A stretch of DNA of 50,097 nucleotides. Source: a virus (Duplodnaviria > Caudoviricetes). The stretch spans positions 1 through 50,097 of the IMG/VR virus record IMGVR_UViG_3300032893_000069; one strand, 5' to 3'. Under the pieces are notes generated by a model that was not told the DNA's origin, searched no databases, and saw only the letters and a list, made by a program, of their open reading frames with translations. Below, in pieces: positions 1,353-47,861 of this stretch; the first letter of the stretch is position 1, and each line of letters begins with the position of its first letter. A program made the translations under genes and the position numbers.

Positions 1353-1523
1353 GTGAAGAGTGGAGAACGTAAACGAGTGATGTTAGCAGCGCGGGTTTCA
1401 GTAAAAGTTAGGGACGCTGCTCGGGAAGTTGCGGCACAGGAAAGGCGCAGCCTCTCGAACATGGTCGAACTGCTGCTGGAATCCGCGCTCGCTGCGAGGA
1501 AGAACGGGAAGGCCGGGAAATGA
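1353..1523 (+). CDS. Arc/CopG-like ribbon-helix-helix regulator (56 aa, not in ORF track)
   Basis: Hand translation ..RVMLAARVSVKVRDAAREVAAQERRSLSNMVELLLESAL..; stop overlaps the next ATG. Confidence 0.7.
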   Translation: MKSGERKRVMLAARVSVKVRDAAREVAAQERRSLSNMVELLLESALAARKNGKAGK

Positions 1524-1879
1524 GCGACAGGCGCGGATTTTTGAAAACGCTACTCACGCTCCCGCTGATAGCGGGTATCGCTGCTAAATTTTCCTGTGAA
1601 TTTGAACTGCCAGTTGGGTGCGATTTATCAATGACTTCGCTCCACGAAGTTCTGCGGCGAGGTGATGAATTAAAACTTGGCTGTCCACGAAAACTGCTCA
1701 TCGGTCCAGAGAATATATTTCCCGCGAGAGAGATACTCGGCTGGCCTCGGTACACGGCGGACAGTGAAATTAACTGGATTACCAGCCAGAATCTATTTTA
1801 CGAAGTCACGGGCAGATATCCGATGAACACTTGGGCCGTGCAGTTTGATCGCGGCGTCATCAAAAGCGTAGGTCCGTGA
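1520..1879 (+). CDS. Tat-signal protein resembling the axial domain of this phage's major capsid protein
   Basis: MSDRRGFLK twin-arginine motif plus hydrophobic stretch; mature part aligns by eye to MCP aa ~184-269. Confidence 0.65.
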   Translation: MSDRRGFLKTLLTLPLIAGIAAKFSCEFELPVGCDLSMTSLHEVLRRGDELKLGCPRKLLIGPENIFPAREILGWPRYTADSEINWITSQNLFYEVTGRYPMNTWAVQFDRGVIKSVGP

Positions 1880-1990: not shown

Positions 1991-2575
1991 ATGCCAGTTG
2001 AACTGATTCAGCAATCAGAAAACATCCTGTGGGTAGGCGAGACAGGATTCGAAGCCAAAGGCGAACGCATCGCTATCATGCAGGATGAGCACAAGTCCGG
2101 CTACGAATGCTTGCGCTGCATGGACAAAGACAAGCGAACGCTGGACGGGAAAGAAGTATCGGTAATCACCTGCGAAGAGTGCGCCGGCGAAGGCAAGCGG
2201 CAAAAGGCAGGAAACGCAGACCTCACAGTAAAATGCTCCGACTGCGAAGGACGCGGCTACCTGCCCTGCCCGGATTGCGGCGGCAAGGGAACATCCACGG
2301 GGATCGTGCTGCCAGAGTCCAGCAAGGGTGAGCCAACCACGGGGATTGTGGTGAGCAAGGGGCCGGACGCAAAGCTGTACGACCTGGGGCATCGCGTGAT
2401 GTTCCCCAGTTACGCGGGGCATTTGTTCGTGGTGAAGGGCAAGGACAAAAAGAGCGGGAAAGAGAAAACCGTTCGCTTGCGCTTCATCAACGAAGGCGAC
2501 GTGATCGCGCAGTTGTACGGCGAGTTGGAGTACAGGTCGCTGGTTAGCTCGCAGGCGTTGTTTACCAACGAATAG
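1991..2575 (+). CDS. groES: GroES/Cpn10-like co-chaperonin with inserted DnaJ-type zinc finger
   Basis: GERIAI..., GIVLPESSKGEPTTGIVVSKGP, GHRVMFPSYAG and FINEGDVIA match GroES; four CxxC(xGxG) motifs at aa 40-100; SD-like GAGGAG upstream. Confidence 0.8.
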   Translation: MPVELIQQSENILWVGETGFEAKGERIAIMQDEHKSGYECLRCMDKDKRTLDGKEVSVITCEECAGEGKRQKAGNADLTVKCSDCEGRGYLPCPDCGGKGTSTGIVLPESSKGEPTTGIVVSKGPDAKLYDLGHRVMFPSYAGHLFVVKGKDKKSGKEKTVRLRFINEGDVIAQLYGELEYRSLVSSQALFTNE

Positions 2576-2580: not shown

Positions 2581-2664
2581 TTTCATGGATGCCCATTGCT
2601 ATCCTAACGAAATGCCCGCGACACGGATGGGGGCCATCGGACCATCTGGTGGGCATCCATGAAA
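2581..2664 (+). promoter_or_regulatory. 15-bp perfect inverted repeat covering the terminase start codon
   Basis: TTTCATGGATGCCCA (2581-2595) pairs with TGGGCATCCATGAAA (2650-2664). Confidence 0.7.
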
Positions 2665-5400
2665 TGGAAAATACTCCCGGTCCCACCAGTAGCGGACGAC
2701 TATGAATTACACTTCCGCAACACGCGGCTAAACAGCCTCGGCTCGCTCTACTGGTTCGCAAAGCACACTCTCGGCTACTCCCGCCTTACCACGCTCCATA
2801 AAGACCTGTGCAAGAGCCTTGAAAACGAGCACCTGTTTTTGGTGATGGAAGTTCCGATGTCGCACTTTAAAGCACTGGACATTCGTACTCCGATACCAAC
2901 ACCCGATGGCTTCAAGCTAATGGGGCACATTAATGTTGGAGACACTGTTTTTGGATCGGACGGTATTCCTGTAAAAGTAACAGGCGTCAGTCCGATTTAT
3001 TTTTCTTCTGATTGCTACGAGTTGGAGTTCACTGGAGGGGACAAAATTGATTGCGATGCCGGACATCTTTGGGAAACGCAATCGCTTGAAGATTACGACA
3101 GAACCAAGCCGAGAATGTATCGCTCAGTGATAAGGACCACAAAAGAAATTTCTTCAAGGATTGATTACGGAAAACAGCGTAATCACAGAGTTAAACTTGC
3201 AAAATCCATTCAATTACCCGATGTGGATTTGCCAATTTCTCCATATGTCCTTGGGTGCTGGCTTGGAGATGGAACGTCTGCGAACGGTTCGATCACTATT
3301 GGGAATTCGGACGAGTGGCTTGCTCACGAAATACGGCGCGAGGGTGAACCGTTAACAAAGGCAAATACCCCATTGAAATGGTGCTTCTATGATGGGAAAT
3401 CAAATTACAGGGATTCTAAAGTCAGGAAATTTGCTTTTGTAACTAGGCTTAGAAAGCTGGGAGTCTTAAATAACAAGCACATACCGCAAGCCTATCTAAG
3501 GTCATCAGCCAGGCAGCGATTGGCCCTCTTACAGGGGCTAATGGATACTGACGGCCACGCTTCCAAATTAGGGCAATGTACTTTTTCAAATACAAACAAG
3601 AATCTAGTGGTGCAAGTAAGGGAATTGGTTTGCTCGCTAGGTCTGAAATGCGGGGAATTGAGAACGTACAAGTCAATGTTGAATCGGAAACACGTTGGAC
3701 TGTTTCACGTCATAACATTTTACTCATTCAAGGATTTTCCTCCATTCCGTATGCCTAGAAAAGTTGCACGGCTGCTAACGCGGTCTCCGCAGTCCATGCA
3801 GTCTTATCGCCATATACGGGCTGCTAGGAGAATCGGGCAACGCTACGTGAAGTGCATCATGGTGGATTCTGCTGACTCTCTTTATTTGGCAGGGGAAGGA
3901 TTTATCCCGACTCACAACACGCGACTTGGAATTTCCCTGTCTATCTGGTGGGCACTTCCATTCGATGAGTACGACGAGAAGCACATGCGCGAATTAGGCT
4001 ACGGGGATGAGTGGATACGCTACATGAAGGCGATCCACGATCAGAATCACCGGACGCTCATCACGCACGAAATTGCTTCCCAGGCAACGAATATCGGGCG
4101 CGACGTGAACGACTGCTACATGAACAACGACACGTTCCGCGCCACGTTTAAGGAAATCATTCCCGATTCAGAGTGTACGTGGAACAACTCCGAAAAGTTC
4201 CAGAAAAGATTGCGCGGCGGAGACGCTTCAACCGGAACATTCGTGTACCGTGGAGTCGGCCAAGCGTTGCAGGGCATCCACGTAAACTCCATCATCCAAG
4301 ACGACAACTTTGGAAAAGAAGCGCAAGACTCCCTGCTCAAAGGCGATGGGCGCATAGTCGAAGATTTGATTAAGTGGCACAAGCAGGTGGGCACGCGCTT
4401 TGACCCGAAGGTGAAGCGAGATCGGCGGCAAGTGGTCATTGGCAATAAGTGGGCGGCGCTGGACCTGAACGGCTACATCAAGAAAAATCAGCCAGAGTTT
4501 AAGTTTGAAAGTCACAGCGCGGAGGGCGGGTGCTGCAAGCGTCACCCAGCAGGAAAGCCTATTCTCCCCGAAGAGTGGACTATTGAACTGCTCCACAAAG
4601 AACGTGACAGGCTTGGGAAGCGAGACTACTCACACTTCTACCTGAACGTGGCGATGCTGCCGGAGGAGCAACTATTCGGTAGTCAGTGGTTGCGTGAATA
4701 CCGCTTTCGGGAAGCAGATCCCCGCTTCTCCAAAGACGACTTGCGCAATGCGCTGATGGTGGAGCACAAGGTCTACGAGGGGACGGCACTCAAGGACTTC
4801 ATGGCCGCGACGCTGGAAATCACAATCATCGTGGACCCGAACCATGCGCGGAAAAACAAGCGCGAGAAACACGTAATCTGGAGCATTGGCTTCGATCCCG
4901 AATCTTCGCGCATCTACTTGCTATCGCTGTGGCAAAAAGACTCCACCTACTCCGTGCTTGTCGAAGAGATGTACAGCCAGTACGCCAACTGGACAATGCG
5001 CAACGGGTTGAAGCAGTTCAAGACTCCCACGGTGTACATGGGGAAAACAGCGCGGGAACTGCTCGCGTTTTATCTGTCGGAGCGCGACAAGCGGGAAAGG
5101 ATTCCGCTGCAAATTGAAGAGTTTGAAGATGACGACTCGCTTGCTGCGATGAAGAACCGGATCGAGTCGCTGGAGCCTACGTTCAAGGCCGCGCAAATCT
5201 GGTGCAATCCAGAGCAGGGCCAGCAGAAAGAATTTGTGGAGGACTACGAGAACTATCCAGCAGGAAAACTGGACGCGCTAGACGTGCTGGGCCACTACCC
5301 GAGAGTAGTAGAGATTGGCGACTCGAAGAATGCGCGTAAGTTCTTACAGGACCAGATGGCAGAGTTTCAGGGCAGACAATCAGGGATTGCAGGGTATTGA
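2659..5400 (+). CDS. terL: terminase large subunit, intein-containing
   Basis: Spliced Walker A PMSHFK/T, Walker B-like IIQDD, coupling motif VIGNKW, nuclease IIVDP...DALD; lies upstream of the portal. Confidence 0.85.
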   Translation: MKWKILPVPPVADDYELHFRNTRLNSLGSLYWFAKHTLGYSRLTTLHKDLCKSLENEHLFLVMEVPMSHFKALDIRTPIPTPDGFKLMGHINVGDTVFGSDGIPVKVTGVSPIYFSSDCYELEFTGGDKIDCDAGHLWETQSLEDYDRTKPRMYRSVIRTTKEISSRIDYGKQRNHRVKLAKSIQLPDVDLPISPYVLGCWLGDGTSANGSITIGNSDEWLAHEIRREGEPLTKANTPLKWCFYDGKSNYRDSKVRKFAFVTRLRKLGVLNNKHIPQAYLRSSARQRLALLQGLMDTDGHASKLGQCTFSNTNKNLVVQVRELVCSLGLKCGELRTYKSMLNRKHVGLFHVITFYSFKDFPPFRMPRKVARLLTRSPQSMQSYRHIRAARRIGQRYVKCIMVDSADSLYLAGEGFIPTHNTRLGISLSIWWALPFDEYDEKHMRELGYGDEWIRYMKAIHDQNHRTLITHEIASQATNIGRDVNDCYMNNDTFRATFKEIIPDSECTWNNSEKFQKRLRGGDASTGTFVYRGVGQALQGIHVNSIIQDDNFGKEAQDSLLKGDGRIVEDLIKWHKQVGTRFDPKVKRDRRQVVIGNKWAALDLNGYIKKNQPEFKFESHSAEGGCCKRHPAGKPILPEEWTIELLHKERDRLGKRDYSHFYLNVAMLPEEQLFGSQWLREYRFREADPRFSKDDLRNALMVEHKVYEGTALKDFMAATLEITIIVDPNHARKNKREKHVIWSIGFDPESSRIYLLSLWQKDSTYSVLVEEMYSQYANWTMRNGLKQFKTPTVYMGKTARELLAFYLSERDKRERIPLQIEEFEDDDSLAAMKNRIESLEPTFKAAQIWCNPEQGQQKEFVEDYENYPAGKLDALDVLGHYPRVVEIGDSKNARKFLQDQMAEFQGRQSGIAGY
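2872..3918 (+). mobile_element. intein (class 3-type) with LAGLIDADG homing endonuclease, 349 aa
   Basis: Starts ALDIRTPIPTPDG, block B DAGHLW, endonuclease motifs LGCWLGDG and LQGLMDTDG, block F VKCIMV, ends PTHN followed by T. Confidence 0.9.
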
Positions 5401-9876: not shown

Positions 9877-10331
9877 CTATTTTCAAGGAGAGCACGCTTT
9901 TTATCGGCTACTTTATGGCAAGGGGAACACAACCAGATCACTTCCAGCGGCTTACTGTAGTCGTCATGGTGGGCCTGTGGCCTGCACTTTTGACCGCAAA
10001 GCACGCAGTGGTCCGGGCGTATCAATTTGCCATGTCGAACCGCGTAATAAACGGCACTCTTTGCTATGCGGCGCTCAGGAAACTTGTCGTGATATTTCTC
10101 GACTATTTCCGCAAAACGTTTGCGATTCTTCGCTCGCCAAGCGCGGTTAGCTTTAGCCACATTCATGCGATGCTGTTCTCTGTTTTCTTGGACCCATCGC
10201 TTCATGGCTTCGCGCTTCTGCTCGGCGTGCTCTCTACTGTATTGGCGGTCCTTTTCCTTGAGCCGCTCCAAGTTTTTAAGTCTGTACTGACGTTGGTACT
10301 CTTTTCTGGCTTCTGGGTCTTTAAGAGGCAT
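9873..10331 (-). CDS. free-standing HNH-family endonuclease, antisense to the head operon
   Basis: CVLC...QAHHDDYSKPLEVIWLCSPCH; likely start MPLKDP at 10331 with GGAG SD. Confidence 0.75.
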   Translation of the reverse strand: MPLKDPEARKEYQRQYRLKNLERLKEKDRQYSREHAEQKREAMKRWVQENREQHRMNVAKANRAWRAKNRKRFAEIVEKYHDKFPERRIAKSAVYYAVRHGKLIRPDHCVLCGQKCRPQAHHDDYSKPLEVIWLCSPCHKVADKKRALLENS

Positions 10332-10355
10332 GTTGTTAAGGACTCCGATTCTAGG

Positions 10356-10384
10356 AATATACCGCAATCCGTAAGGATGTGCAA
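10356..10384 (-). promoter_or_regulatory. promoter for the antisense HNH gene
   Basis: TTGCAC-17 nt-TATATT on the minus strand. Confidence 0.55.
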
Positions 10385-10410
10385 GTGAAAAACGAGAGAG
10401 GTGAATAGCC

Positions 10411-11373
10411 GTGGCCGGAAACATTCTTGTGCGCAACACCTTCCCACCGCTCCTTGCGGCTGGTCTTCGTTACGTATTTTGGCAAGCCACTGATCTCAAA
10501 GAGCATGCGCCGCAGTACACGCACTACATCAATGAGATGACATCGGAAGATGCCTACGAGATTGACTACGAACTCTCGGGCACTGGACCGATGCCGATGA
10601 TGCAGGAAGGCTCCGCGCCGGCTGCGGACGGCATCATCCAGGGCGGCACCCGGAAGTACGTACACATCCAGTACGGACTCCTGACGGAAGCCACGCGCCA
10701 GCTTGTCGCGGACGACAAGTACGGCATCATTATGAACGTGCCGAAGTCTCACGCACGCTCCGCGCTGTACGCGAAGGAAGCGGTTGCGGCCTCGCTGTTC
10801 AACCTCGGCGGGACCTCCATCACCACCACCAACGGTGCGACGCTGTTCAACACCGCGCAGCCCTTGATGGGCGGGTCGCAGGCAACCACGCTGGCCCCGA
10901 ACATTTCCACGATCATCAATTCGGCTGGCACCTATCCGAACCGGCCCACCCCCGACTCGGACCTGACCAATACTGCCTTGCAGCAAGCCATCACGATGAT
11001 CGCGCTGCAACCGGATGACCGCGGCATCCCCATCCACGTGAAACCGAAGTATCTGGTCCACGCGCAGCAGAACCGCCGCAACGTGCGCGAACTGCTTGGC
11101 TCGGGCGGCGTGCCGGGATCTGCGAACAACGAATTGAACTGGCTCCAGGGCGAGTCGCTGACGGGCCTTGAGTTGAACTACCTGACCACCCCGTTCGGGT
11201 GGGGGTTGCTCACCGACAAGGAAGGGCACATGCTCAAACTTTACGATAGAGAGCCGTTGATGGCGGCAACCGACGACGACTTCAAGACAGAAGTTTTGCT
11301 CTTCAAATCGACGCAACGTTTCAGCGTGGGCGCGACGAGCTGGCGTGGGACCTGGTGGTCTTTCGGAAGTTGA
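10411..11373 (+). CDS. major capsid protein (HK97 fold, Mu gpT-like family)
   Basis: EG...Y.H.QYGL...TRQLVADDKYG, LFNTAQP, PKYLV, RFSVGATSWRG; strong GAGGTG SD. Confidence 0.85.
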   Translation: MAGNILVRNTFPPLLAAGLRYVFWQATDLKEHAPQYTHYINEMTSEDAYEIDYELSGTGPMPMMQEGSAPAADGIIQGGTRKYVHIQYGLLTEATRQLVADDKYGIIMNVPKSHARSALYAKEAVAASLFNLGGTSITTTNGATLFNTAQPLMGGSQATTLAPNISTIINSAGTYPNRPTPDSDLTNTALQQAITMIALQPDDRGIPIHVKPKYLVHAQQNRRNVRELLGSGGVPGSANNELNWLQGESLTGLELNYLTTPFGWGLLTDKEGHMLKLYDREPLMAATDDDFKTEVLLFKSTQRFSVGATSWRGTWWSFGS

Positions 11374-17546: not shown

Positions 17547-18020
17547 ATGAGGCCAACTACACAAGAAGAAAAATTCTGGCGTCACGTCGATAAGAAGGGG
17601 ACTGACGAGTGTTGGGAATGGCAAGGCTCACTCAGGAAGGGATACGGGTTTTTCAAGCATCACGAAGATGGGAGGCCGCGAAAAATTTCAGTCCACAGAT
17701 TTTCGTTTGAATTGCATAAAGGGAAAATGGATGCTGGAAAACAGTGCTGCCATACCTGTGACAACCCGAAGTGCGTTAATCCCCGCCATCTTTTTGAGGG
17801 GACAGGGATGGACAACGTTCGAGATGCGATGGAGAAGGGACGTAGGACGCAGAATGGCGAATTGAACAAAAGCAGGAAACTTGACCCTGCTAAGATTAGG
17901 GGAATTAGGCTCTACAGGCGGCAAAAATACACGCAACAAAACATCGCCCAGAGGTATAATGTGTCCGTTGCGTTGATTGGCCAGATACTTCGTGGGAAAA
18001 TCTGGACGCATGTGAGGTAA
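17547..18020 (+). CDS. free-standing HNH endonuclease with C-terminal HTH
   Basis: FWRHVDK...CWEWQG...HRFSFELH...CHTCDNPKCVNPRHLFEGT..DN. Confidence 0.9.
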   Translation: MRPTTQEEKFWRHVDKKGTDECWEWQGSLRKGYGFFKHHEDGRPRKISVHRFSFELHKGKMDAGKQCCHTCDNPKCVNPRHLFEGTGMDNVRDAMEKGRRTQNGELNKSRKLDPAKIRGIRLYRRQKYTQQNIAQRYNVSVALIGQILRGKIWTHVR

Positions 18021-24281: not shown

Positions 24282-27200
24282 ATGTGGCGTCCACTTTATC
24301 TCGCCCTAGCCCTCCTACTGTTGTGCCCCTTAGCCTTTTGTCAGACCACAGCCGTTTCCGGGACGATCACTGACGCCAGTGGGCAGGCGTGGTTTGGTGG
24401 AACCTACTCAGTTTCTTTCAAGCCTTCACCTTCAAACCCTTTTGGGCCGTACTATTACCAAGGTGCGCCGTTCAACACGTTCCAGAGCTATCATGGCTCG
24501 CTCAACGGCTCAGCGGCCTACAGCCAATCGCTGCCCAGCAACACAGCGATTAAGCCGGCTGGTTCGACTTGGGTGTTCACTTTTTGTCCGCTTGCCAGTT
24601 CGACGTGCTACACGATGCCGCAAGGCATCACCGTAACCGGGGCTACGCAAACGTACTCGCCAACGCCTCCCGGCATCAGCATCAGTCTGATCCTCCCGTT
24701 TGAGGGACCTGTCCGCGCATACTCTGATTCGGAAATTTCAGCGGCAGCGATTGGGTCCATCTACTACAACCTCGTTTCGTCCATCTCCCGGCAATGCACA
24801 GCGGTCAACACTGCTAATCAGGCGTGCACGGCATGGCAGAACATCGGGGGAAGCTCTAGCACGGGACAGGTTACGGCTTCCGCCACGGCGGAGCAATTTG
24901 GTGCGAGTCCGTCCGCTTCCGCATCCACCAACACGGCAGCAATTCAGAGTGCGCTAAATGTGGGCGGCACGGACACTTTATCCACCTGCGGGACCTACCA
25001 GGTCAACGCCCCGCTGGTGATTAGCAGCAATACGCGCTTTATTGTCGCGCCGTGCGTGGAACTCTTCCAGGCGAACGGCACCAACAACAATATGATCGTG
25101 AGCCATGCGTTCACGCAGCGCGGCTACCTGTCTGGAACCTTCACGTATGTTTCTGGAGCAAGCGGTTGTCCAGCGAACACCACGCAATATGTGGCTTTCA
25201 TCAACGGCAACGGTGTGGGTGGCCACGGGACAATCTCAATTAACAACAGCGGCGTCCCCACGGGGAACGTCACGCTCGACAATCCGGGTGCGTACTACAG
25301 CAGCACCACACCGACCACAGCGGCGATCTACAACTCCAGCGGCACCTACGCCTGCGGCAGCACGGCAACGCAGACAAACCCTGCGACGTTCTCTGGCGGG
25401 ACCGTGGTTAACCCGACTACGCCCGTTACTCTCACGTGGAGTGCGTCCACTCCCGAGCAGGTCACAGTCAACTGCGGCGCTGCAATCGCCCCATGCTCCA
25501 CGTTCTACAATGGCGGAAACACGCTGGCGCAGCAAGCGTACTCCACAATTTCTAACGCTTACCCTTCCGCGCTGAATTGCACCTGTTTGGTCGAGACAGT
25601 TCCATCCAGCAGCAGCTACACCTACCGGCTACGCCGCAACCCGATTTTCACCACGCAGACGACTGCTGCTTCCGTGACAAGCAATGTGGCGACACTGACA
25701 GCAGGAAGTAACCCGCAACTGCTTGGCTTCGCGGCAGGGCAATCTATCTCAGTGACCGGATTCAGCGGGAGCGATACCTACTTCAATGGGACGTACACGA
25801 TCTCCACGGTCACTTCGACGCAGATCACTTACGCGCTGACGCACGCCAACGGCAGCGCGACCACCAACGGCGTCGTTGCCCTAAACGGTGTCACTACGGA
25901 CCACGGCGGCTCTGTTGTCGCCATGCAAGCGGACCAAAATATCATCATCGAAGGCGGACAGTGGGACTACAACGGGCCAAACAATAGCTCGGCAAACGGC
26001 TACACCATCGGGTCCACCATCGTAATGTTTGCGGCGCAGAACGTGGAAATCCGCGACATCAATTTCATCCAGCCCAAGTACAACACTGTCCTATTCGGCG
26101 CGGTTTCCGACTTCCACCTGCACGATCTTACGGATGAGGGTAGCGGTGCCGTGCAGTTTTTCGAGTGCCAGGGACCTTGCTACAACGGCGAAGTTGACCA
26201 CATCACTTCAACCGGATGGGATGATGGGATGTCTATGTTGACGCGCATCTCTTCCGGCTATTACTCAAACGTCATTCTGTCCTATGGTGACGTGCAAAAC
26301 TCTGGCTTCCGCCACATCAATCGGCTCAATCCAAACAACGTCAATTCGGGTGCCACCGGCGAAGTGATGTTCTACGGCAGCCAGTTTGAATACATGGGCG
26401 GCGTCTATGCGCGGGACATCGGCGGATCTCCAAGTTTGCAGGGTGGAGCGGGGGGAACAAATGACGTGGCGTGCGTCGGAGTGGCATCACTTTTTCCCAA
26501 CACCACGATTGATACCGTAGACATTGAAAACGTGAACGGTTCCTGCACTTGGCAGGTGCGCATTGCTGCGACTTCGCCCGACACCACGAAGGTCAATCAC
26601 CTTACGGTAAAAAACGTCACCTGCAATCCGCAGCAAAGTTCTGGCGGCGAAGGCGAAGAGTGCATTCAGTTCACGGGCTATGTGACTATCGGCAAAGTCG
26701 AAATTGAAAAGCTCACGTACACCAGCACCTCGCACGCGGTTGGCAGCGTCCCCGTAATCGAGTCTGGAGCGAACATTCAAGAAATGGATGTGACTGATGC
26801 GAACGTGCAGCCTTCTGGCATAGGCGCTCCCATTACGTTCATTCAAATCAACGGAATCCCCGGCGTCAGTTCCCAGATCGTCAAACTAAACATCTCGCGC
26901 CTTATGATGGGGCCAACCTTCATAACGCCTGCCGTGGTGGTTGACGGGTCGCTAGAAAACACGGCAATGATCACGATTATCAAGGACAGCACGTTCAACG
27001 CTTACGAGGCGGTTCTGTTGAACACAACCGCCACTGCGGTAAACCGCACCTACATACTGCGTGACAACACCATGACCGGAATGGTCAATGGTGCAGTGGA
27101 CATTGGTCCGGCTGGCGGCACAATAAACGTATACAGCAGCGGCAACTCCATGAGTGGAACGGCATACGTGGCCCCGGCGCTCAACACCTGCGGAACACTT

Positions 27201-28097
27201 TGCACGGTAAATCTCTATGATGGTGGCGAACGTGGATCGTGGACCTACAGCAATGCGGGGGTGGCGGTATTCACATCCGTAGCTAACGCATCTGGTGGGC
27301 ATACCACGTACACGGGAACCGTGAGCGTATGTCCTGCCGTGGGCATCTTGGTCAACATTTCTGGATTTTCTACTTCCGCCAATAACGGCTACTTCCCGTT
27401 TGTTTCCTGCGTTCCTGGGGTTGGCAGTGGAACGATGACGGTTTCCAACTCAAGCGGTGTAAGCGAAACAGCTTCCGCTTCTGCCGCTTTTGCGCTGGTC
27501 AACATGATTCCACCGGGACCGTGCCAGGGTGCTCCCGCAATTTTTGGAACGGGATTCAACACTGGGACCGTCACTGGCCCAAGTCCCTGCGCGTTCAAGA
27601 TCACTGTGGGGAGTGTTAGCCCTGGCAATAGCGCAGACCTTGCGATGCCGTGGTACGCGCAGAATGGATGGAATTGTGCGGTATCGAATTTAACAAACTT
27701 TTCACGCGCTATCTTTCAAACTTTTTCCAGCGTCAACACGGCCAGCTTTAGCAGTCAGCAGCAAACACTCAATTCTACATATGCCGGAGGCAGCCAAGCC
27801 ATCTCCAGCATCGCTGCCTCAAGCGGTGGGGTAGCGGTTTACACGTTCACTTCGACTCCCGCGAATATCGCAGTCAATTCGATAGTGGTGGTCAACGGCG
27901 CGGTGAACAATGCGAACAACGGCGCGTACATCGTAACGGCGGTGAATCTCGGGGCAAAAACGGTGACGCTGGCTAACAACGCCGCTGTAATTGAAGGCAG
28001 TTCCACGGCCACTGCGTTTGCGCTTTTCGGTACGACTTGGGCCAATCAAAACTTTACGAACGGGGACCAGTTGCTTTTCCAATGCTCGTTTTACTGA
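24282..28097 (+). CDS. tailspike-like protein with signal peptide and beta-helix region
   Basis: MWRPLYLALALLLLCPLAFC|Q; AEQFGA...NTAAIQSAL...GTY pectate-lyase-like start; FCCH-like beta repeats. Confidence 0.7.
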   Translation: MWRPLYLALALLLLCPLAFCQTTAVSGTITDASGQAWFGGTYSVSFKPSPSNPFGPYYYQGAPFNTFQSYHGSLNGSAAYSQSLPSNTAIKPAGSTWVFTFCPLASSTCYTMPQGITVTGATQTYSPTPPGISISLILPFEGPVRAYSDSEISAAAIGSIYYNLVSSISRQCTAVNTANQACTAWQNIGGSSSTGQVTASATAEQFGASPSASASTNTAAIQSALNVGGTDTLSTCGTYQVNAPLVISSNTRFIVAPCVELFQANGTNNNMIVSHAFTQRGYLSGTFTYVSGASGCPANTTQYVAFINGNGVGGHGTISINNSGVPTGNVTLDNPGAYYSSTTPTTAAIYNSSGTYACGSTATQTNPATFSGGTVVNPTTPVTLTWSASTPEQVTVNCGAAIAPCSTFYNGGNTLAQQAYSTISNAYPSALNCTCLVETVPSSSSYTYRLRRNPIFTTQTTAASVTSNVATLTAGSNPQLLGFAAGQSISVTGFSGSDTYFNGTYTISTVTSTQITYALTHANGSATTNGVVALNGVTTDHGGSVVAMQADQNIIIEGGQWDYNGPNNSSANGYTIGSTIVMFAAQNVEIRDINFIQPKYNTVLFGAVSDFHLHDLTDEGSGAVQFFECQGPCYNGEVDHITSTGWDDGMSMLTRISSGYYSNVILSYGDVQNSGFRHINRLNPNNVNSGATGEVMFYGSQFEYMGGVYARDIGGSPSLQGGAGGTNDVACVGVASLFPNTTIDTVDIENVNGSCTWQVRIAATSPDTTKVNHLTVKNVTCNPQQSSGGEGEECIQFTGYVTIGKVEIEKLTYTSTSHAVGSVPVIESGANIQEMDVTDANVQPSGIGAPITFIQINGIPGVSSQIVKLNISRLMMGPTFITPAVVVDGSLENTAMITIIKDSTFNAYEAVLLNTTATAVNRTYILRDNTMTGMVNGAVDIGPAGGTINVYSSGNSMSGTAYVAPALNTCGTLCTVNLYDGGERGSWTYSNAGVAVFTSVANASGGHTTYTGTVSVCPAVGILVNISGFSTSANNGYFPFVSCVPGVGSGTMTVSNSSGVSETASASAAFALVNMIPPGPCQGAPAIFGTGFNTGTVTGPSPCAFKITVGSVSPGNSADLAMPWYAQNGWNCAVSNLTNFSRAIFQTFSSVNTASFSSQQQTLNSTYAGGSQAISSIAASSGGVAVYTFTSTPANIAVNSIVVVNGAVNNANNGAYIVTAVNLGAKTVTLANNAAVIEGSSTATAFALFGTTWANQNFTNGDQLLFQCSFY

Positions 28098-28104
28098 GGT
28101 AATT

Positions 28105-31026
28105 ATGAAGAAAATAACCCTGCTCGGTCTGCTCTTGTTCGTGGCGGCACTCCCCGCTTTCGGGCAGAGCACCACGGTCAGCGGAACAGTCCAAGACCTG
28201 GGAAGCCAAACATGGAATAACGGCAGTATCGAATTTGACTTCGTGCCAAACCCGCAGTACCCGAGTCTCCCGCAGTACACGTGGACCGGAGGGACGCTAA
28301 GCTATTCGGTCAAGGGAACGTTAGGAGGCTCTGGGACGTACAGCGTAAGCGTGCCAACAAACAGCGCCATCACGCCTGGTGGTTCGCAGTGGACGATTAA
28401 GGTGTGCTCGCTTGCCACATTCCCCTGCTATACCACTACGCCGGCGACGATCACGGGAGCCACGCAGACAATCAATGTGACTCCTCCGGCCATCAGCATT
28501 AATTTGGTGGCAAATCCCACGGCGAGTGCTTATGTGGACGGTGAGATTAGCGGCGCTATTCTTGGATCAACTTATTTCAATTTGACTAGTTCGTTGCAAC
28601 GGCTTTGCACGGCGCTGACTAGCGGTGCGTGCTCGACGTGGGCGAACAACGGAACAGGCGGCAGTACGGTGTATCCGTCTGGAACTGGCATTACGACTGT
28701 CACGGGCGGCTCTGCTTGGGGTACTACCCTAACAGGCGCGGCGGCTGGCGACCTGATCTACTATAACGGCTCTGCGTGGGCAAAGTTTGCGGGGAATAGC
28801 GGAGCAACGAACTGCTTGACTGAAAACACAAGCGGTGTGCCCTCATGGGCAACGTGCGGGAGTGGCGGGGGTGGCACTGTCACAAGTTTTGCGGCTCCAT
28901 CGGGGAGTTGGCCATCTTGGTTGGTCCCAACGGTCACAAACTCTACAACCACGCCATCACTGGCGGTGGCGGCGAGTTCGATTCCAAATAACGCACTGGC
29001 CTTCTCTTCCATCACTATTGCGGGAACGCCGATTTCACTTGGAGGTTCCACTTCATCTTTCCCAAGCCCCGGCGCTATCGGTGGAACAACGCCAGCGGCG
29101 GGCACGTTTACTACGCTGACGGCCAATACTAGTTTTACCCTTAACGGCGGGACTGCCCAGACAGGGACGCAAGGAACGGACACCAAACTTCTGACAGCCG
29201 GGACGGTGAGCGGGACGGCAGCAAACCTTTGCACTGATGCGAACGGCGGCGCGACGACATCAGGATGCACAAGTGGTGGCAACACAACGTCAACGTCATT
29301 GACCTCTGGCTACTATGCAAAGGCGAACGGCGCAAACTCCATCGTCAATGGAACGTGCGACAGCGGCATCTCCACGGCGAACACTTTCACGTGCTCGGAT
29401 ACAGCGGGCGCATCGTTCGCTGAGGTGACGGTGACAGGCGGCTCCAACGCTGGCGCGGACGTGTTTACGGCGGGCACGGCACAAGGGCACGCGACAGCAA
29501 GCACCGTGACGCTGGAAGCTCCTACTTCGGTGACAGCTTACGAAGTCCAACTGCCTACGGCGGCGGGAACGGGCCTCAACCTGTGGACAAACAGCGCGGG
29601 AGTGGTGGCGCAAAGCCTTCTGGCTTCCGCTGCGGCTGGCGACCTTGTGGTAGGCAACGGGACTACGTGGACAAAATTTGCAGGCAACGCATCAGGGACT
29701 AACTGCTTGCAGGAAAACTCATCCGGCGTGGCATCATGGGCTTCGTGCGGCAGCGGGTCTTTTGCTTTCCCTATCACCGTCTCAGGTACAACAACCTCAG
29801 GCGGCATTCCATATTTCAGCAACACGACAACGCTTACCTCGTCTGCTTTGCTGGCGACAAACCACGTCCTGCTTGGCGGCGGTGCGGGCGGAGCACCAAC
29901 CTCCGACTCCAACCTTGACGACGGCGCAACCACGGCTAACACGCTGACCTATGCAGGAAGCGCGGGAATTTCAGCCAAATCACTGACCACGACTGGTTCT
30001 TCGGCTGGAGCACTAGTCCTCACGCAAGGGACTGCAAACTCTGCTGGCACAACCAACATCACGATTCAGGCACCTACGTCTGTCACTTCGTATACGCTTG
30101 CCCTGCCTTCGGCGGCAGCGAGCGGCGTTCCTGTATGGTCAAACTCTTCGGGAACGGTGACGGAGAGCATCAGCACGGCACCTAGCTTCTCTGCGCTGAA
30201 CTGCGGCGTAGCATCCACAACGGCCTGCGTGATTACCGGGCAAGGCTCAACCAGTGGAACCGCAACCCTCACCTGGCCAGCAGTTGCGGGGACAGCCACT
30301 AACCCAATCGTCTCCAGCAATGTTATTCAAGTGCCGCAGAACGATGGAGTGCATTCCACGGCGGGATACAGTTTCTCCTCCTGTGGCGCAACCGTTTTCT
30401 GCGGAATGTGGGTTATCAACGGGTCAAGCCACTTGGTCCTGAGTGCTGGCGGTTCGGGAAATATCTACATGGAACCGAACGATGCAGCGACATTCACATT
30501 CACCACCGGAGGGGAGTTGCAGCCAGTAGCGGTGGGCACGCAGACGATTGGCGATGCGACAAACTACCTTTCAAAGGTCTACTCCAACAATTACTATGCC
30601 GGGACGGGAGCAACGGCAGGCATCACTGCCGCAGTGGTATGCAACAGCACGTTCGGCTCAACCAACGGACTCGTCACCACCTGCACAAACACTTCTGATC
30701 CTCGACTTAAAAACATCGAAGGAACTTTGAAATACGGCCTAAAAGAAGTCAATGCCGTCACGCCAATCACTTTCAAGTGGAACGACTTGGCCCACAACCT
30801 AATCTATGGCTTGCAAGATGATTCCCAAATTGGTTTCAACGCGGAAGAGTTGCAAAGCGTGATGCCGGAAATTGTGGGAACAGAAAATCACGATGGAGTG
30901 GATTACCGAACCATCAAATCTGACCGCGCTCTTATTGCTACGCTCTGGAACGCTGTGAAGCAGCAGCAGGCTCAGGTAGAAGAACTCAAGCGGCAAGTCG
31001 AAGAACTCAAAGCAAAGGTGCAATAG
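28105..31026 (+). CDS. tail fibre with signal peptide and C-terminal intramolecular chaperone (peptidase S74)
   Basis: MKKITLLGLLLFVAALPAFG|Q (ATG 28105, GAGG SD); SDPRLKNI...FKWN...GFNAEEL...LWNAVKQ plus coiled coil; internal repeats. Confidence 0.8.
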   Translation: MKKITLLGLLLFVAALPAFGQSTTVSGTVQDLGSQTWNNGSIEFDFVPNPQYPSLPQYTWTGGTLSYSVKGTLGGSGTYSVSVPTNSAITPGGSQWTIKVCSLATFPCYTTTPATITGATQTINVTPPAISINLVANPTASAYVDGEISGAILGSTYFNLTSSLQRLCTALTSGACSTWANNGTGGSTVYPSGTGITTVTGGSAWGTTLTGAAAGDLIYYNGSAWAKFAGNSGATNCLTENTSGVPSWATCGSGGGGTVTSFAAPSGSWPSWLVPTVTNSTTTPSLAVAASSIPNNALAFSSITIAGTPISLGGSTSSFPSPGAIGGTTPAAGTFTTLTANTSFTLNGGTAQTGTQGTDTKLLTAGTVSGTAANLCTDANGGATTSGCTSGGNTTSTSLTSGYYAKANGANSIVNGTCDSGISTANTFTCSDTAGASFAEVTVTGGSNAGADVFTAGTAQGHATASTVTLEAPTSVTAYEVQLPTAAGTGLNLWTNSAGVVAQSLLASAAAGDLVVGNGTTWTKFAGNASGTNCLQENSSGVASWASCGSGSFAFPITVSGTTTSGGIPYFSNTTTLTSSALLATNHVLLGGGAGGAPTSDSNLDDGATTANTLTYAGSAGISAKSLTTTGSSAGALVLTQGTANSAGTTNITIQAPTSVTSYTLALPSAAASGVPVWSNSSGTVTESISTAPSFSALNCGVASTTACVITGQGSTSGTATLTWPAVAGTATNPIVSSNVIQVPQNDGVHSTAGYSFSSCGATVFCGMWVINGSSHLVLSAGGSGNIYMEPNDAATFTFTTGGELQPVAVGTQTIGDATNYLSKVYSNNYYAGTGATAGITAAVVCNSTFGSTNGLVTTCTNTSDPRLKNIEGTLKYGLKEVNAVTPITFKWNDLAHNLIYGLQDDSQIGFNAEELQSVMPEIVGTENHDGVDYRTIKSDRALIATLWNAVKQQQAQVEELKRQVEELKAKVQ

Positions 31027-31027
31027 C

Positions 31028-31663
31028 ATGAAACTTGTGAACTGGAACCGTACAATTTCCGTATGGCTGGCGAGTGCGATCCTTGTTCTCGCGCCGCTTT
31101 CTGGATATGCGCAAAACCCCGTAGTAGTTGGGGGAAAGGCAATACTAGGCGGAAAGGCTTCTGTTGGTGGTGGGAGCGGAGTAACCACCGTTACCTGTGG
31201 CTTGACTACGGCAGGATCAAATACTGACGGTGGGAACGCGGACATTCCTTTTGCTACTCCTTGCGTGACTGGCTCCGATCCTTCCGGTTACACCGTGCAG
31301 TCCTGTTCCTACTATGCGGTCGCAACTTCAAACGCGGGAAGATGCGGCGTATATACCGATAGCAGCGGGAATCCCAATACACTACTCTGCCAATCAGCTA
31401 CTATCAGCTCGCCTTCGGTTGGCTTTAATGTGCTTTCGTTAAGCGGATGTGGCACGTTGACTAATGGGATAACTTACTGGATAGGGTTCATCACTAGCGA
31501 TAGCGCGAACGCGGAAAAGTACAACACAGGAAGCTGCCCCGGATACGGTGGCGGCTCAAAGTACGGTACAACTCAAGGAAGCGCCACGCTGCCTGCATCA
31601 TTTGGATCAAATACGAACATTGGGAATTGCTATTCAGCCTACATGACGCTGGTGCCAAATTGA
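31028..31663 (+). CDS. secreted beta-sandwich fibre-associated protein
   Basis: Signal peptide ...VLAPLSGYA|Q; GVYTDSSGNPNTLL...LTNGITYWIG. Confidence 0.6.
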   Translation: MKLVNWNRTISVWLASAILVLAPLSGYAQNPVVVGGKAILGGKASVGGGSGVTTVTCGLTTAGSNTDGGNADIPFATPCVTGSDPSGYTVQSCSYYAVATSNAGRCGVYTDSSGNPNTLLCQSATISSPSVGFNVLSLSGCGTLTNGITYWIGFITSDSANAEKYNTGSCPGYGGGSKYGTTQGSATLPASFGSNTNIGNCYSAYMTLVPN

Positions 31664-34620
31664 GAAAATTGCTTCTGCTTCTGCTGCTCGTAGCTCCCAC
31701 CTGCTACGGCCAGAGTTGCACGCTCGGACTGACGAGCACGCTTCAGACCAATCAGCTTTGTCCCTCACGTGACCCTGTGGATTATTCGCAGTACGGACTT
31801 CCCGCGTCGTATCCGAATGGGGAAACGCCAGTGGACCGCTACACGCCTCCGGTCCGCACGCAATGCGGGTCTACGCTCCCGGCATCAAGCTCGGTGGCAA
31901 CGGTGCAAACTGCCATCAATAATTGTAGTAGCGGCGGTGGCAAAGGCTACGTGCTCATCGGGCCGGGGACATTCACCGTAAACTCCAACCTATCGTTCAA
32001 TCCCTTTGGGACGGGCAATAACTATGTGGAATTGCGCGGCAGCGGCCCGATGCAGGCCACGATGCAGATGATAGGCGACGGTCAGATTACGTTTGGCGCT
32101 ATCAACAACATCGTCAGCCAGGCAATTACTTCGACTCCGGCGCAGGGTTCTACCACAGTCACAATCGCCACCAATGGAAGTCCAGGAATCAGCGTAGGGA
32201 TGATTGCAGAAATCAGCCAGTGCGCGAATGGCGTAAGTGGGAGCGGTTGCACGACTGGCGTCCCTTACGACAACGGCGGGGACTTCAACTGCGGTGAGAA
32301 TGTGATCTGCCAGATTTATCCCGGTGAGGGCTTGAGCAGTGGGGCTGGAGGTATTCTTCAAGTTGTGCGTGTCACAAATGTCAGCCCATCGAACTGCACG
32401 ACAAACTGCGTTATTACCTTCACGCCTCCATTGGTGGATTCTGCCTGGTCAACCGCGAATAGCCCTCAAATCACATGGTACGCCCCTTCGACACTCGGCC
32501 ACGCGATGTATGGCGACGGTATCACCGGCTTCACGCTGGATTTCAGCCAGTCCACGCTCTCTCCCGCTGGACATCAACTGGAATTTCAGAACTGCTACGG
32601 CTGTTATATCTATGGCAATCGCATCATTGGCAACAACGTGGTCAGCGGAAGCTCCACAGTCACGCAGAACATCTACGCCAACGTGCTGATGAACTCCATC
32701 ATTGGCAACAACTATATTGTTCCCGACTGGCCCCCGGCAAACGTCAACCACGAATCGGTTATTTCCGAGATTCAGCAGCACGCTGGCCTGAGCATGGACT
32801 TCAACAACATCATGGAAGGTCACATCCAGTGGGAAGGCTTTGGCCACATGACCGGGCACGTCATCGCCTACAACTATTTCAGCCACACGCACACGGCCTA
32901 CTACGAAGGCTCATTCAATCACGTAGTCGGCGGGCGCTATTTGCTCTATGAGGGCAATCAGGGGATTCGCTTTGATGAGGATGGGGCGCACGCCATCCAT
33001 ACCATGAACCTGTGGTTTCGCAACTATCAGGTTGGTTACGACCCGCCGTATGTCTCGACTGGGCCGGGATGTTTCGACCTCGCTTCTGGACGTGTCGAGA
33101 ACCTCATCGGCAACGTCTGCGGGAATCCGACAACGAGTTCCAGCACGAAAATCAGCACCTACCGCACGGATACTTCTACGGGCTGCTCACCCAACACTAA
33201 CTACGTCTACTTGCTTGGCTGCGTCAATCAGACAGGCGGCGAAATCGCTCCAGTGGACACGCTGGCCACTCCTACCAGCATGTTCTGGGGCAACGTAACG
33301 AACATCACGCAGGGAAGCGATACGCCAGCAAACTCCGGTATCCGCTTCGTGAGTTCGGAGGTTCCCTCGACACTGCCAGCCTATGCTGGGACGCAGACGC
33401 AAATCGGCACGGGTAATGGAAGCACCACATCATTCAGTGGCACGGTTGCCAGTGGTGGACTCCCCTGCATCTACGGCAATGAAACAGTAGTAGCTGAACC
33501 AACACAGGCCGTAAATGACCCTGGACTAAATGGCAGCCTGAGCGGAACAGGAAGCAGTAGCGGGTCCATTAATTGCACAACAGGAGCAGTGAGCGTTACG
33601 TTCCAGAGCGCCCCAGCGAACGGCACGGCCATTATGGTCAACACCGTCAAAAACGTTGGCGGCAGCAGCTTCTTTCAGAATCCCGTGCCCAGCAGCCAAA
33701 CATTGCCGAAGTCATACTTCCACAATTCAGGCACACCGCCGCCATTCTGGAAAGTATGTACGTCCTTTAGCACGTTCCCGACTTGCACAGGAACAACCAC
33801 GCAACCGTGGCCCTACGCTGGCCCCGATGTTACTGGTGGACCTTACGTGAATGGCCACGCTTACGACAACCCTGCTCGCGTCGCTTATGCCAATCTTCCC
33901 GTGGATACAAACTATCAGTTCACCTATTCCATCTCTGGCTCAAGCTGGGCTGGTGGGGTTGAAACCATCACCATTAGCGGCCTCCCGACAAACAACTACT
34001 TCGAGGGCGGTTTCCGGTTTAGCGGCGCAAACTCCGCGTGCATCCCCACTAGTGGCGTGTCATACACGGGCAGGTCCGACAACGAAATCCTGATGACGAC
34101 CTCCAACGCCTCATCTGGACAGTTCACTTATTCACTGCCCATCAATCCCGGCGTAAGTTGCACAGGTTCGGTGCTGTATCCTGATGTTCGGCAGTTTGAT
34201 GCATCCATCTATAGTGCCAGCACTGGCGGCTCTGTCACGCTAATTCCCTATTCGTACAATTTCGGCTCCGTGAACGTAGGCGGCAACTCCGGCCCCACAA
34301 CTTTCACGCTGACGAACAACTCCTCCGCGTCGGCGACGAGCCTTTCGGCGACGATCACGGGGACCAACTCGGGAGACTTCTCGATCAGTTCCAATACCTG
34401 CACGGGCACACTGGCGAATGGTGGGGCGACTTGTACGCTGAATGTGACGTTTACGCCAGGCGCGGCGGGATCACGATCGGCGAGTCTCAGCATTTCCTAT
34501 TCGGGTGGCGACGGAGCATCGCCGCAGACCTCGACGCTTTCCGGTACGGGAGTAGGTGTTAGCATTTCTCACAAAGTTCTTGGTACAGTTCAAGTGGAAG
34601 GGACGGTGGTTGTCGAATGA
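31660..34620 (+). CDS. secreted beta-helix protein with C-terminal ASH/choice-of-anchor D-like Ig domain
   Basis: TTG start overlapping the upstream stop, MRKLLLLLLLVAPTCYG|Q; VQTAINNC...GPGTF; NFGSVNVG...FTLTN...CTLNVTFTP...LSGTG. Confidence 0.7.
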   Translation: MRKLLLLLLLVAPTCYGQSCTLGLTSTLQTNQLCPSRDPVDYSQYGLPASYPNGETPVDRYTPPVRTQCGSTLPASSSVATVQTAINNCSSGGGKGYVLIGPGTFTVNSNLSFNPFGTGNNYVELRGSGPMQATMQMIGDGQITFGAINNIVSQAITSTPAQGSTTVTIATNGSPGISVGMIAEISQCANGVSGSGCTTGVPYDNGGDFNCGENVICQIYPGEGLSSGAGGILQVVRVTNVSPSNCTTNCVITFTPPLVDSAWSTANSPQITWYAPSTLGHAMYGDGITGFTLDFSQSTLSPAGHQLEFQNCYGCYIYGNRIIGNNVVSGSSTVTQNIYANVLMNSIIGNNYIVPDWPPANVNHESVISEIQQHAGLSMDFNNIMEGHIQWEGFGHMTGHVIAYNYFSHTHTAYYEGSFNHVVGGRYLLYEGNQGIRFDEDGAHAIHTMNLWFRNYQVGYDPPYVSTGPGCFDLASGRVENLIGNVCGNPTTSSSTKISTYRTDTSTGCSPNTNYVYLLGCVNQTGGEIAPVDTLATPTSMFWGNVTNITQGSDTPANSGIRFVSSEVPSTLPAYAGTQTQIGTGNGSTTSFSGTVASGGLPCIYGNETVVAEPTQAVNDPGLNGSLSGTGSSSGSINCTTGAVSVTFQSAPANGTAIMVNTVKNVGGSSFFQNPVPSSQTLPKSYFHNSGTPPPFWKVCTSFSTFPTCTGTTTQPWPYAGPDVTGGPYVNGHAYDNPARVAYANLPVDTNYQFTYSISGSSWAGGVETITISGLPTNNYFEGGFRFSGANSACIPTSGVSYTGRSDNEILMTTSNASSGQFTYSLPINPGVSCTGSVLYPDVRQFDASIYSASTGGSVTLIPYSYNFGSVNVGGNSGPTTFTLTNNSSASATSLSATITGTNSGDFSISSNTCTGTLANGGATCTLNVTFTPGAAGSRSASLSISYSGGDGASPQTSTLSGTGVGVSISHKVLGTVQVEGTVVVE

Positions 34621-37294: not shown

Positions 37295-37732
37295 TTATTC
37301 ACCCCCTCGCTGTACTTGTCCAGAGGGGATACTTACCAGGTCCGAAGTCGTCGTAGGCACATCCACGCCGCTCAACACTTGCAGTTCTCGATCGCCACTT
37401 TGCCACACTGCTTCCCGCACAGCACGCGGCATGATGATGCAACCCTCTGAGGCCGCTCCGGGGTGCTCCCGCGAGTCTCCGTGCATCATAAAGCCCGACC
37501 TGCCAAACATCTCGTTTGATGCGTAGGGCGACAGCGGTATTGCGTAGGGGCCATGCGTAGGCGAGTTCTCAGGCTGGAGGATGAGGTATTTGCCGCACGG
37601 GATGGGTCCTTGATTGGGGAGCATTTGCGCGGCAGGGTCGTTCTTAGCGATACCCAGACCTGAATAGCCTTGCGCCAGTAGCTTACCCGTGGGGTCCAGA
37701 AGTTCTCCGGTGAGTTGGATGTAGGTGAACAT
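37295..37732 (-). CDS. Tlde1/DUF2778-like L,D-transpeptidase-fold peptidoglycan enzyme
   Basis: GYSG...NDP...GPIPCGKY...GRSGFMMHGD...ASEGCII (catalytic His and Cys); the last 13 codons are IS-derived. Confidence 0.8.
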   Translation of the reverse strand: MFTYIQLTGELLDPTGKLLAQGYSGLGIAKNDPAAQMLPNQGPIPCGKYLILQPENSPTHGPYAIPLSPYASNEMFGRSGFMMHGDSREHPGAASEGCIIMPRAVREAVWQSGDRELQVLSGVDVPTTTSDLVSIPSGQVQRGGE

Positions 37733-42408: not shown

Positions 42409-42569
42409 TGGTCGGCCTTCTTTTCGTAGTACCGCGCCAGTGCTGCATTGGACACTTTTACCGCGCACGCTTCGCAGTGGCGGCGACCCGGACGGCGCTT
42501 GACTTTTCCGCATTTCGCGCATAAACCAGCTTTCAGCCGCTTGATCTCCATACGCGCTTGACGTTTCAT
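42399..42569 (-). CDS. basic zinc-finger protein (56 aa, not in ORF track)
   Basis: MKRQARMEIKRLKAGLCAKCGK...HCEAC; begins 6 nt after a -10 box. Confidence 0.6.
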   Translation of the reverse strand: MKRQARMEIKRLKAGLCAKCGKVKRRPGRRHCEACAVKVSNAALARYYEKKADQCG

Positions 42570-42575
42570 GGGCAC

Positions 42576-46664: not shown

Positions 46665-47234
<570 letters not shown>

Positions 47235-47291: not shown

Positions 47292-47861
<570 letters not shown>

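Follow-up and report, generated by a model that had tools for sequence, protein, structure and literature searches.

Organization of the small gene

The window analyzed here is a 50,097-nucleotide stretch of viral DNA (Duplodnaviria; Caudoviricetes) that covers positions 1 to 50,097 of the IMG/VR record IMGVR_UViG_3300032893_000069. Near its start, positions 1520..1879 of the plus strand encode P0001, a protein of 119 residues that is the subject of the present study; this open reading frame (ORF) agrees exactly with the one proposed in the original prediction, which was made from the sequence of the window. P0001 consists of three parts. The N-terminal region (residues 1–23; 1520..1588) resembles a twin-arginine translocation (Tat) signal, with the arginine pair (RR) at residues 4–5 (1529–1534), a hydrophobic h-region at residues 10–22 (1547–1585) and a closing lysine, K23. 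The central part (residues 32–112; 1613..1855) is the stretch that we assign to the axial domain (A-domain) of the HK97-fold major capsid protein (MCP). The C-terminal strand and tail (residues 113–119; 1856..1876) are specific to the P0001 family and are located where the MCP chain departs for the hairpin of its P-domain. The ATG of P0001 shares four nucleotides (ATGA) with the TGA stop of the preceding gene (1353..1523, plus strand), which encodes a 56-residue Arc/CopG-like protein of the ribbon-helix-helix (RHH) type.

Sequence homology to the capsid A-domain

The MCP of the same phage (320 residues; 10411..11373, plus strand) is assigned to the HK97 fold by its matches to PF25209 (Phage_capsid_4; E 2e-11) and PF10124 (Mu-like gpT; E 3.8e-6) and by Foldseek. 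BLASTP aligns residues 34–92 of P0001 with residues 183–250 of this MCP (18 of 69 positions identical) at an E value of 0.001 for the single comparison, which is marginal alone given the ~60 proteins of the window. Comparison at the family level gives far lower E values. A word-indexed search retrieves eight homologs of P0001 (117–136 residues, 42–56% identity), and hhalign places residues 33–103 of nine small proteins on residues 181–258 of 33 MCPs with a probability of 98.8% and an E value of 1e-16. When 46 small proteins are compared with the 33 MCPs, the alignment covers residues 32–112 and MCP residues 181–271 (10951..11223, plus strand, in the window) at an E value of 1.7e-17. The original prediction listed four colinear blocks between P0001 and the MCP, and all four are recovered by BLASTP and hhalign, including the block around W105 of P0001 and W264 of the MCP. 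The motifs DLS, IGPEN, ARELLG, YTADSEIN and W are common to P0001 and the MCP A-domain, and the positions D35, L36, S37, A44, G54, L59, W105, F109, E110, G112 and S116 are near-invariant in the small-protein family.

Broader searches link the same two groups of proteins. The nine-sequence profile, run against 1.84 billion proteins, returns 48 proteins at E ≤0.001, most of which are small (83–146 residues). Five of the 48 are of MCP length (290–319 residues) and are aligned at approximately residues 155–257 with E values of 4e-6 to 9e-4; P0088, an MCP-length match, is also present in the list of MCP homologs. A hidden Markov model (HMM) of the small-protein family, applied to six-frame ORFs of 80 MCP loci, matches the MCP in 73 loci, always at approximately residues 180–270, and does not match the window's own MCP or the nearest relatives of that MCP among these loci. 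In a plain BLASTP comparison, the small protein of the carrier G006 matches the MCP of locus L055 with an E value of 9e-18 and 46% identity over 87 residues. Searching 50,697 phage records with P0001 by tblastn yields only five weak matches (E 0.2–0.3), all in capsid-position genes, and the Pfam scan gives no capsid-family match for P0001 itself. On the basis of these alignments, the ~90-residue domain of P0001 is homologous to the MCP A-domain. An origin by an internal deletion that kept the MCP N-terminus was considered and rejected, as residues 1–12 of the family align with MCP residues 5–16 at an E value of only 0.33 and a probability of 0.2%.

Predicted fold of P0001

In the description given in PMC5701804, the HK97 fold is made up of an A domain built on a beta-sheet, a P domain that contains the spine helix, and an E-loop. 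The AlphaFold2 (AF2) model of the window's MCP, with a mean predicted local distance difference test score (pLDDT) of 89.2, resembles solved phage capsids (HK97, T5 and Mu among them) with Foldseek E values down to 5.5e-12. It contains a spine helix (residues 107–131), followed by a helix (187–198), a strand (212–217), two helices (219–230 and 245–248), two strands (251–254 and 264–268), a long hairpin (275–290 and 295–308) and a last strand (314–317). The AF2 model of P0001 has a mean pLDDT of 77.7, with means of 75–91 for 10-residue blocks over residues 31–119, and comprises a helix (38–50), a strand (56–61), two helices (63–73 and 82–89) and three strands (93–96, 105–109 and 112–115). The order of helices and strands in P0001 is that of MCP residues 187–268, and the spine helix and the long hairpin are missing from the P0001 model. 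The hhalign alignment to the MCP stops at residue 112, where the last modeled strand (112–115) begins; the near-invariant S116 lies within the C-terminal strand and tail. As modeled, P0001 is an axial domain without the P-domain hairpin.

Structural comparisons agree with this assignment. VIA alignments of the P0001 model to HK97-fold chains give Z values of 6–8.3, which are middling, as in HK97 Head II (2ft1_F; model residues 25–119 on chain residues 236–382) and T1 (9kzj_A; model residues 27–119 on chain residues 170–319), and the structural matches include HK97, T1, Sf11, SPO1 and encapsulin chains. In a Foldseek search, the P0001 model has no match in PDB or BFVD at E ≤0.001, and the top rows are still capsids and encapsulins. 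For an independent model from ESM Atlas, six of eight rows are exclusively capsid or encapsulin clusters, and the other two rows are an HK97-like cluster and a viral cluster without a name; the matches to phage capsid and encapsulin clusters have template modeling (TM) scores by query of 0.54–0.65. Given the Foldseek null result and the middling Z values, the homology is supported chiefly by sequence, and the structural evidence agrees with it. A four-copy complex prediction (residues 24–119, 46-row alignment) scored 0.00 against a mark of 0.42 in a run in which the partner's fold was uncertain, and this score speaks neither for nor against the mini-capsomer suggested in the original prediction.

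A conserved twin-arginine N-terminus

P0001 begins with MSDRRGFLK, in which the DRRGFLK motif spans residues 3–9, followed by 13 uncharged residues that include a proline (mean Kyte-Doolittle value 2.0) and then by K23. The original prediction regarded this segment as a Tat signal, and the arginine pair is kept in most homologs whose sequence extends N-terminal to the domain: RR is found at residues 3–15 in 34 of the 46 family members, within motifs of the [S/T/N/D/E]RRxF[F/L] type such as TRRSFF, NRRGFL and DRRSFF. In these members, 9–21 uncharged residues follow the motif and are often closed by K or R. Both members on the two basal branches of the family, P0133 and P0121, carry RR. The Tat-signal models are the only families matched by more than two members, with TIGR01409 matched by 7 of 46 (best E 0.0044) and PF10518 by 9 of 46 (best E 0.0022). 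Within the window, a simple pattern of RR plus a hydrophobic stretch fits one of the 345 ORFs of at least 50 residues, and this ORF is P0001. Judged by its motif and h-region, P0001 fits the sequence definition of a Tat substrate and, as RR is conserved, export or membrane targeting is taken as the default. The architecture first proposed, in which a Tat-like signal precedes a free-standing homolog of the capsid A-domain, is supported, and neither outcome that the original prediction named as counting against it, a lack of similarity to A-domains or a twin arginine that is not kept in homologs, was observed.

A lipoprotein reading of the conserved LPVGC motif that precedes the domain was rejected: the motif has a proline at position −3 and is located 8–30 residues past the h-region, position −1 is occupied by D, P or N in a number of members, and 13 of 43 have S, A, V, I, W or L in place of the cysteine. 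With a median isoelectric point of 5.6, the mature domain is mildly acidic, a property that speaks against DNA binding.

Origin and distribution of the family

A tree of the A-domain stretch was built by a quick method from 74 MCP rows, 46 small proteins and two distant MCP outgroups over 98 columns. The small proteins group together in a single clade with an SH-aLRT value of 100 and a stem of 0.78, nested inside the MCP family; its placement beside MCPs of the L055, L061 and L060 type is weakly supported (81). The end branches of the small proteins range from ~0.04 to 1.8, with 12 longer than 1.0, whereas the median for the full set of 122 rows is 0.074 and MCP end branches are mostly shorter than 0.2. 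For the small proteins of three carriers with long contigs, the MCP of the same phage ranks 70th, 60th and 43rd of 74 in similarity, and the MCPs of these carriers fall in three different parts of the MCP tree. These low ranks and scattered positions indicate that the gene has passed from phage to phage and did not arise by recent duplication of the resident MCP gene. As placed by the tree, the small-protein family has a single origin inside the MCP family, is fast-evolving and is horizontally mobile. The original prediction had aligned P0001 with the phage's own MCP and read it as a copy of the capsid axial domain; P0001 is not a copy of this MCP but a member of an old family with a single origin and fast evolution that has spread among related phages. 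We also considered whether the small protein avoids its own MCP, as a poison aimed at rivals might. However, the window's MCP ranks 70th–71st of 74 for all three small proteins and gives no specific signal; its low rank everywhere reflects the divergence of that MCP clade and not self-avoidance.

The small gene is far less common than the MCP gene. At least 46 intact homologs of 83–146 residues exist, and a viral collection contains at least 563 capsid relatives versus four small-gene loci, both scans being pattern-limited. No stand-alone copy is present in any of the 80 MCP loci, including 13, L007 among them, whose coverage extends 1 kb or more upstream of the GroES-like gene. The fetched locus of the closest relative, L007, whose MCP is 92% identical, has no small gene and carries other small ORFs between its RHH-like and GroES-like genes. 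All three complete related genomes that were searched and one that is 87% complete match the family in the MCP only. The carriers G005 and G006 each have both an MCP gene and the small gene, and no copy was found in bacterial genomes with one peptide pattern. By this distribution, the small gene is rare, accessory and dispensable for head assembly. Its lack in phages with near-identical MCPs makes a core role in head assembly or anchoring unlikely, and the suggestion in the original prediction of a membrane anchor for heads is disfavored by the lack of a copy in the fetched locus of the closest relative and in the three complete related genomes.

Genomic context

The small gene lies within ~4.5 kb of the large terminase (TerL) gene in all five carrying loci, and its orientation varies. 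In the window, the RHH gene, the small gene, the GroES-like gene, TerL and the portal gene are arranged in this order on one strand. Locus L004 has an RHH-like gene with a 4-nucleotide overlap, the small gene, other ORFs and the GroES-like gene, followed by TerL and portal on the opposite strand. In L005 and L006, an unannotated gene for 153–157 residues abuts the small gene, which is followed by TerL, and in L003 the small gene is divergent from the GroES-like gene, TerL and portal. The upstream genes of L005 and L006 have no convincing family match; by their position, we would guess that they encode a small terminase.

The RHH protein of the window matches PF07878 (E 5.5e-5, below the curated cutoff) and the Arc-like repressor family phrog_3431 (E 1.9e-4). 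A toxin-antitoxin unit made of the RHH gene and the small gene was rejected: an RHH gene precedes the small gene in the window and L004 alone, the unrelated 153–157-residue gene takes its place in L005 and L006, and L007 has an RHH-like gene without the small gene. The interval between the RHH-like and GroES-like genes is a variable slot with differing small ORFs (770–2432 in L007, 1927–2550 in L004 and 1353–1990 in the window), and a 72–74-residue ORF is common to L007 (1934–2152) and L004 (1882–2151) and missing from the window. Upstream of the RHH gene, two small cysteine-rich ORFs (121 and 50 residues) that resemble zinc ribbons or DnaJ fingers occupy positions 591–1096 on the minus strand, divergent from the RHH and A-domain pair, and promoter-like sites are found in the 1097–1352 spacer.

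Downstream of the small gene, positions 1991..2575 (plus strand) encode a GroES-like (Cpn10) protein (PF00166, E 7.3e-6) with a DnaJ-type CXXCXGXG zinc-finger insert (PF00684, E 6.6e-4, below cutoff). By tblastn, 22 of the 80 MCP loci have a GroES-like gene, as do L003 and L004, and wherever the terminase gene is covered too, the GroES-like gene lies upstream of it. Phage T4 depends on a GroES-like protein, gp31, for the folding of its capsid protein, and the protein of the window may be a phage co-chaperonin for capsid folding. The large terminase (2659..5400, plus strand; PHROG terminase, E 1e-35) contains a LAGLIDADG intein-like insert with a PF14528 match at residues 286–330. It has 913 residues versus 579 in L007, and its relatives align only to residues 1–72 and approximately residues 399–913; the insert is probably an intein.

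The phage and other genome features

The MCP of this phage is at most 30.5% identical to that of any cultured phage record, and its portal protein has no match. The phage DNA was matched in three wetland metagenome DNA runs, and no RNA run was among the matches listed. No integrase-like family was found among the 48 ORFs of the window that were scanned, and a lytic lifestyle is possible.

Other genes recognized in the window include a DNA methyltransferase (37732–38400, minus strand), an Erf-like annealing protein (43886–44482, plus strand), a clamp-loader-like ATPase (48249–48914, minus strand) and two HNH endonucleases (17547–18020, plus strand, and 41989–42603, minus strand; PHROG E 4e-28 and 5e-32), one of which is inside the structural gene block. 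Small membrane-protein ORFs are found at ~39.2–40.8 kb on the strand opposite to that of the small gene. Large proteins without annotation are encoded at 24282–34620 and are candidates for ejection or tail proteins. Before the MCP gene, a gap of ~535 nucleotides (9877–10410) contains only a hydrophobic 157-residue ORF (9915–10388) and may be a noncoding leader or a small membrane protein gene. Identical poly-leucine antisense ORF segments occur at 46697–46915 and 47324–47542 (minus strand), 627 nucleotides apart, inside the ORF at 46725–48002 (plus strand); they indicate a long direct repeat inside this 425-residue plus-strand ORF.

Discussion

P0001 is predicted to combine a Tat signal with an excised capsid A-domain, a well-supported architecture for which we found no described counterpart. 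We propose that the small protein is a Tat-targeted accessory factor that is derived from the capsid A-domain and acts in the envelope, a proposal for and against which we consider the case evenly balanced. The passenger descends from the axial domain of the MCP, with the P-domain hairpin excised and the short family-specific C-terminal strand closing the fold. The domain would fold in the cytoplasm, as capsid domains do, and such cytoplasmic folding would account for a signal of the Tat and not the Sec type. The folded domain would then be carried across the inner membrane by Tat, so that the site of action would be the envelope and not head assembly. The use of a capsid domain suggests that the protein presents a surface like that of the capsid to a partner that ordinarily comes into contact with capsids. 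Displayed in the periplasm, this surface would bind and hold a ligand of the capsid A-domain, and one candidate for this ligand is a protein that a related incoming phage ejects from its head. Tentatively, competition or superinfection exclusion by a periplasmic capsid-like surface appears to be the likeliest mechanism, a view that we hold with low confidence.

Several observations weigh against an envelope-acting role. Twelve of the 46 family members lack RR; in several of these the start falls within the domain or immediately ahead of it, which may reflect truncated gene calls, and at least two, P0142 and P0155, have N-terminal extensions that are free of a signal, which suggests that a cytoplasmic form of the domain also exists. 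P0001 itself falls below the reporting limit of TIGR01409 and PF10518, both of which are very short models. There is no clear AxA cleavage site, as P0001 has IAA-K and no consistent A-x-A is seen across the family, so that cleavage and membrane tethering are both possible. The small gene abuts or overlaps the preceding gene in the window and in L004–L006 and lies beside head and packaging genes, an arrangement that suits morphogenesis as well. Finally, no cultured relative places the host, and hence neither its Tat system nor its envelope type.

A specific form of the envelope proposal, which we regard as unlikely, is that the excised, Tat-fitted and capsid-mimicking domain is a weapon used outside the cytoplasm against related phages. 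Such a weapon could work by two routes. The domain would recapture head-derived ejection proteins in the periplasm and block genome entry by a superinfecting phage, or it would act as a Tat 'hitch-hiker' adaptor that drags capsid subunits of a rival to or through the translocon.

The gene neighborhood, the relationship to MCPs of other phages and the signal-less members also suit an alternative in which, in the cytoplasm or at the membrane, the free A-domain docks onto full-length MCPs encoded by the same phage or by a relative that co-infects the cell. The small protein would poison or cap capsomers or, through its Tat signal, tether or hitch-hike them to the membrane or translocon. Consistent with this possibility, the motifs common with the MCP A-domain are retained, the small proteins are closer to the MCPs of other subclades than to their own (70th, 60th and 43rd of 74), the gene adjoins GroES-like, terminase and head genes, some family members have no signal, and Tat is able to carry folded complexes. 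However, the low rank of the own MCP is unspecific and shows no self-avoidance pattern, the conserved export signal would take the protein away from the assembly site, and the gene is missing from close relatives with near-identical MCPs. Moreover, the domain has no E-loop, N-arm or P-domain, the elements that make most intra-capsomer contacts. Capsomer modulation is therefore doubtful, and yet it is the most durable of the alternatives to an envelope-acting factor.

The MCP origin of the family, together with its accessory, fast-evolving and horizontally mobile character, would also fit a decoy or sponge that binds a host receptor sensing phage MCPs and thereby blunts the defense. We judge this function to be distinctly unlikely. 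CapRel acts inside the cell, which counts against a decoy that is exported. In favor of a decoy, CapRel is named in the title of PMC9712102, and the available text of PMC13581612 describes Avs7 and Dsr1 as MCP-sensing defense proteins; these two act inside the cell according to that text, yet 34 of the 46 members carry an export signal. Cytoplasmic sensors fit the signal-less minority of the family better than its majority. In addition, no defense or anti-defense family was matched in searches that did not extend to PADLOC, and an MCP-like fragment could equally trigger the sensor.

Two further explanations fare worse. T4 RI is a periplasmic lysis-timing factor and is analogous in location, and a small protein that is predicted to be periplasmic, in a phage without a recognizable integrase among the 48 ORFs scanned, might similarly act on a holin or spanin or report superinfection. 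Nonetheless, such a regulator of lysis or its timing is very improbable: no candidate lysis gene adjoins the small gene, the small membrane-protein ORFs at ~39.2–40.8 kb are on the other strand, no similarity to known lysis proteins is seen and the gene is missing from close relatives. It is extremely improbable that P0001 is a decaying, functionless remnant of a partial MCP duplication with a chance look-alike of a signal, as the weak pairwise similarity to the own MCP (E 0.001) might suggest, because at least 46 intact homologs (83–146 residues) share near-invariant positions, 34 of 46 keep RR, the family forms one well-supported clade across phages with different MCPs and the fold is modeled with confidence.

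The HK97 fold is usually treated as an indivisible block from which the shells of tailed phages and herpesviruses and the encapsulins are built. The P0001 family suggests that the axial domain can exist as an independent and apparently stably folding protein that is kept, diversified, passed between phages and redirected toward export. The small protein would serve folding and design studies as a minimal A-domain of natural origin, and the family is likely to represent a new class of phage accessory factor. Why would a virus send a piece of its capsid protein through Tat? The small size and clear RR motif of P0001 make it a simple test case for this question. If either weapon route is true, P0001 would be the first exclusion factor made from a capsid domain and the first natural use of Tat by a phage in inter-phage conflict. 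The full-text literature searched yielded no account of an HK97 A-domain that stands alone or is exported, and the available text of the HXS paper (PMC13128918) refers to Tat only as an engineered signal and offers no precedent for a phage Tat capsid domain.

Comparison with known systems

The small protein shares ~80 homologous columns and the same order of helices and strands with the A-domain of HK97-fold MCPs of the Mu gpT and Phage_capsid_4 type. Unlike these MCPs, it lacks the N-arm, the E-loop, the spine helix and the P-domain hairpin and is 119 residues long instead of ~320. It also differs in that it carries a predicted export signal, evolves several-fold faster, is dispensable by its distribution and apparently does not form a shell. 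Encapsulins resemble the small protein in that both are HK97-derived proteins used for purposes other than a virion shell, and encapsulin chains are among the best structural matches; the encapsulin family Linocin_M18 was not matched by P0001 in the Pfam scan. Encapsulins, however, keep the whole fold and form closed cytoplasmic shells with cargo, whereas the small protein is a single subdomain that appears to be aimed at export. T4 gp24 is a vertex paralog of gp23 and a full-fold structural part of the head. Paralogs of this type and the small protein both arose from an MCP gene duplication within a phage lineage and subsequent divergence, but the former are full-fold head parts and the latter is a subdomain with a putative signal peptide.

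With bacterial Tat substrates of the TIGR01409 and PF10518 families, the small protein shares an S/T-R-R-x-F-L-K-like motif and a moderately hydrophobic, proline-containing h-region that is followed by a basic residue. Its passenger differs in being a viral capsid subdomain in which no cofactor site is detected. T5 Llp, Cor, T4 Imm and Sp, and Ltp are envelope-located phage exclusion proteins that are targeted by Sec or as lipoproteins, and to our knowledge none of them is related to a capsid protein. Like these proteins, the small protein is small, dispensable, patchy in distribution, fast-evolving and, by prediction, directed to the envelope, which makes them its most plausible functional class. 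P0001 can be set beside two known kinds of event or protein, namely, the duplication and exaptation of a capsid gene and the accessory envelope proteins of phages.

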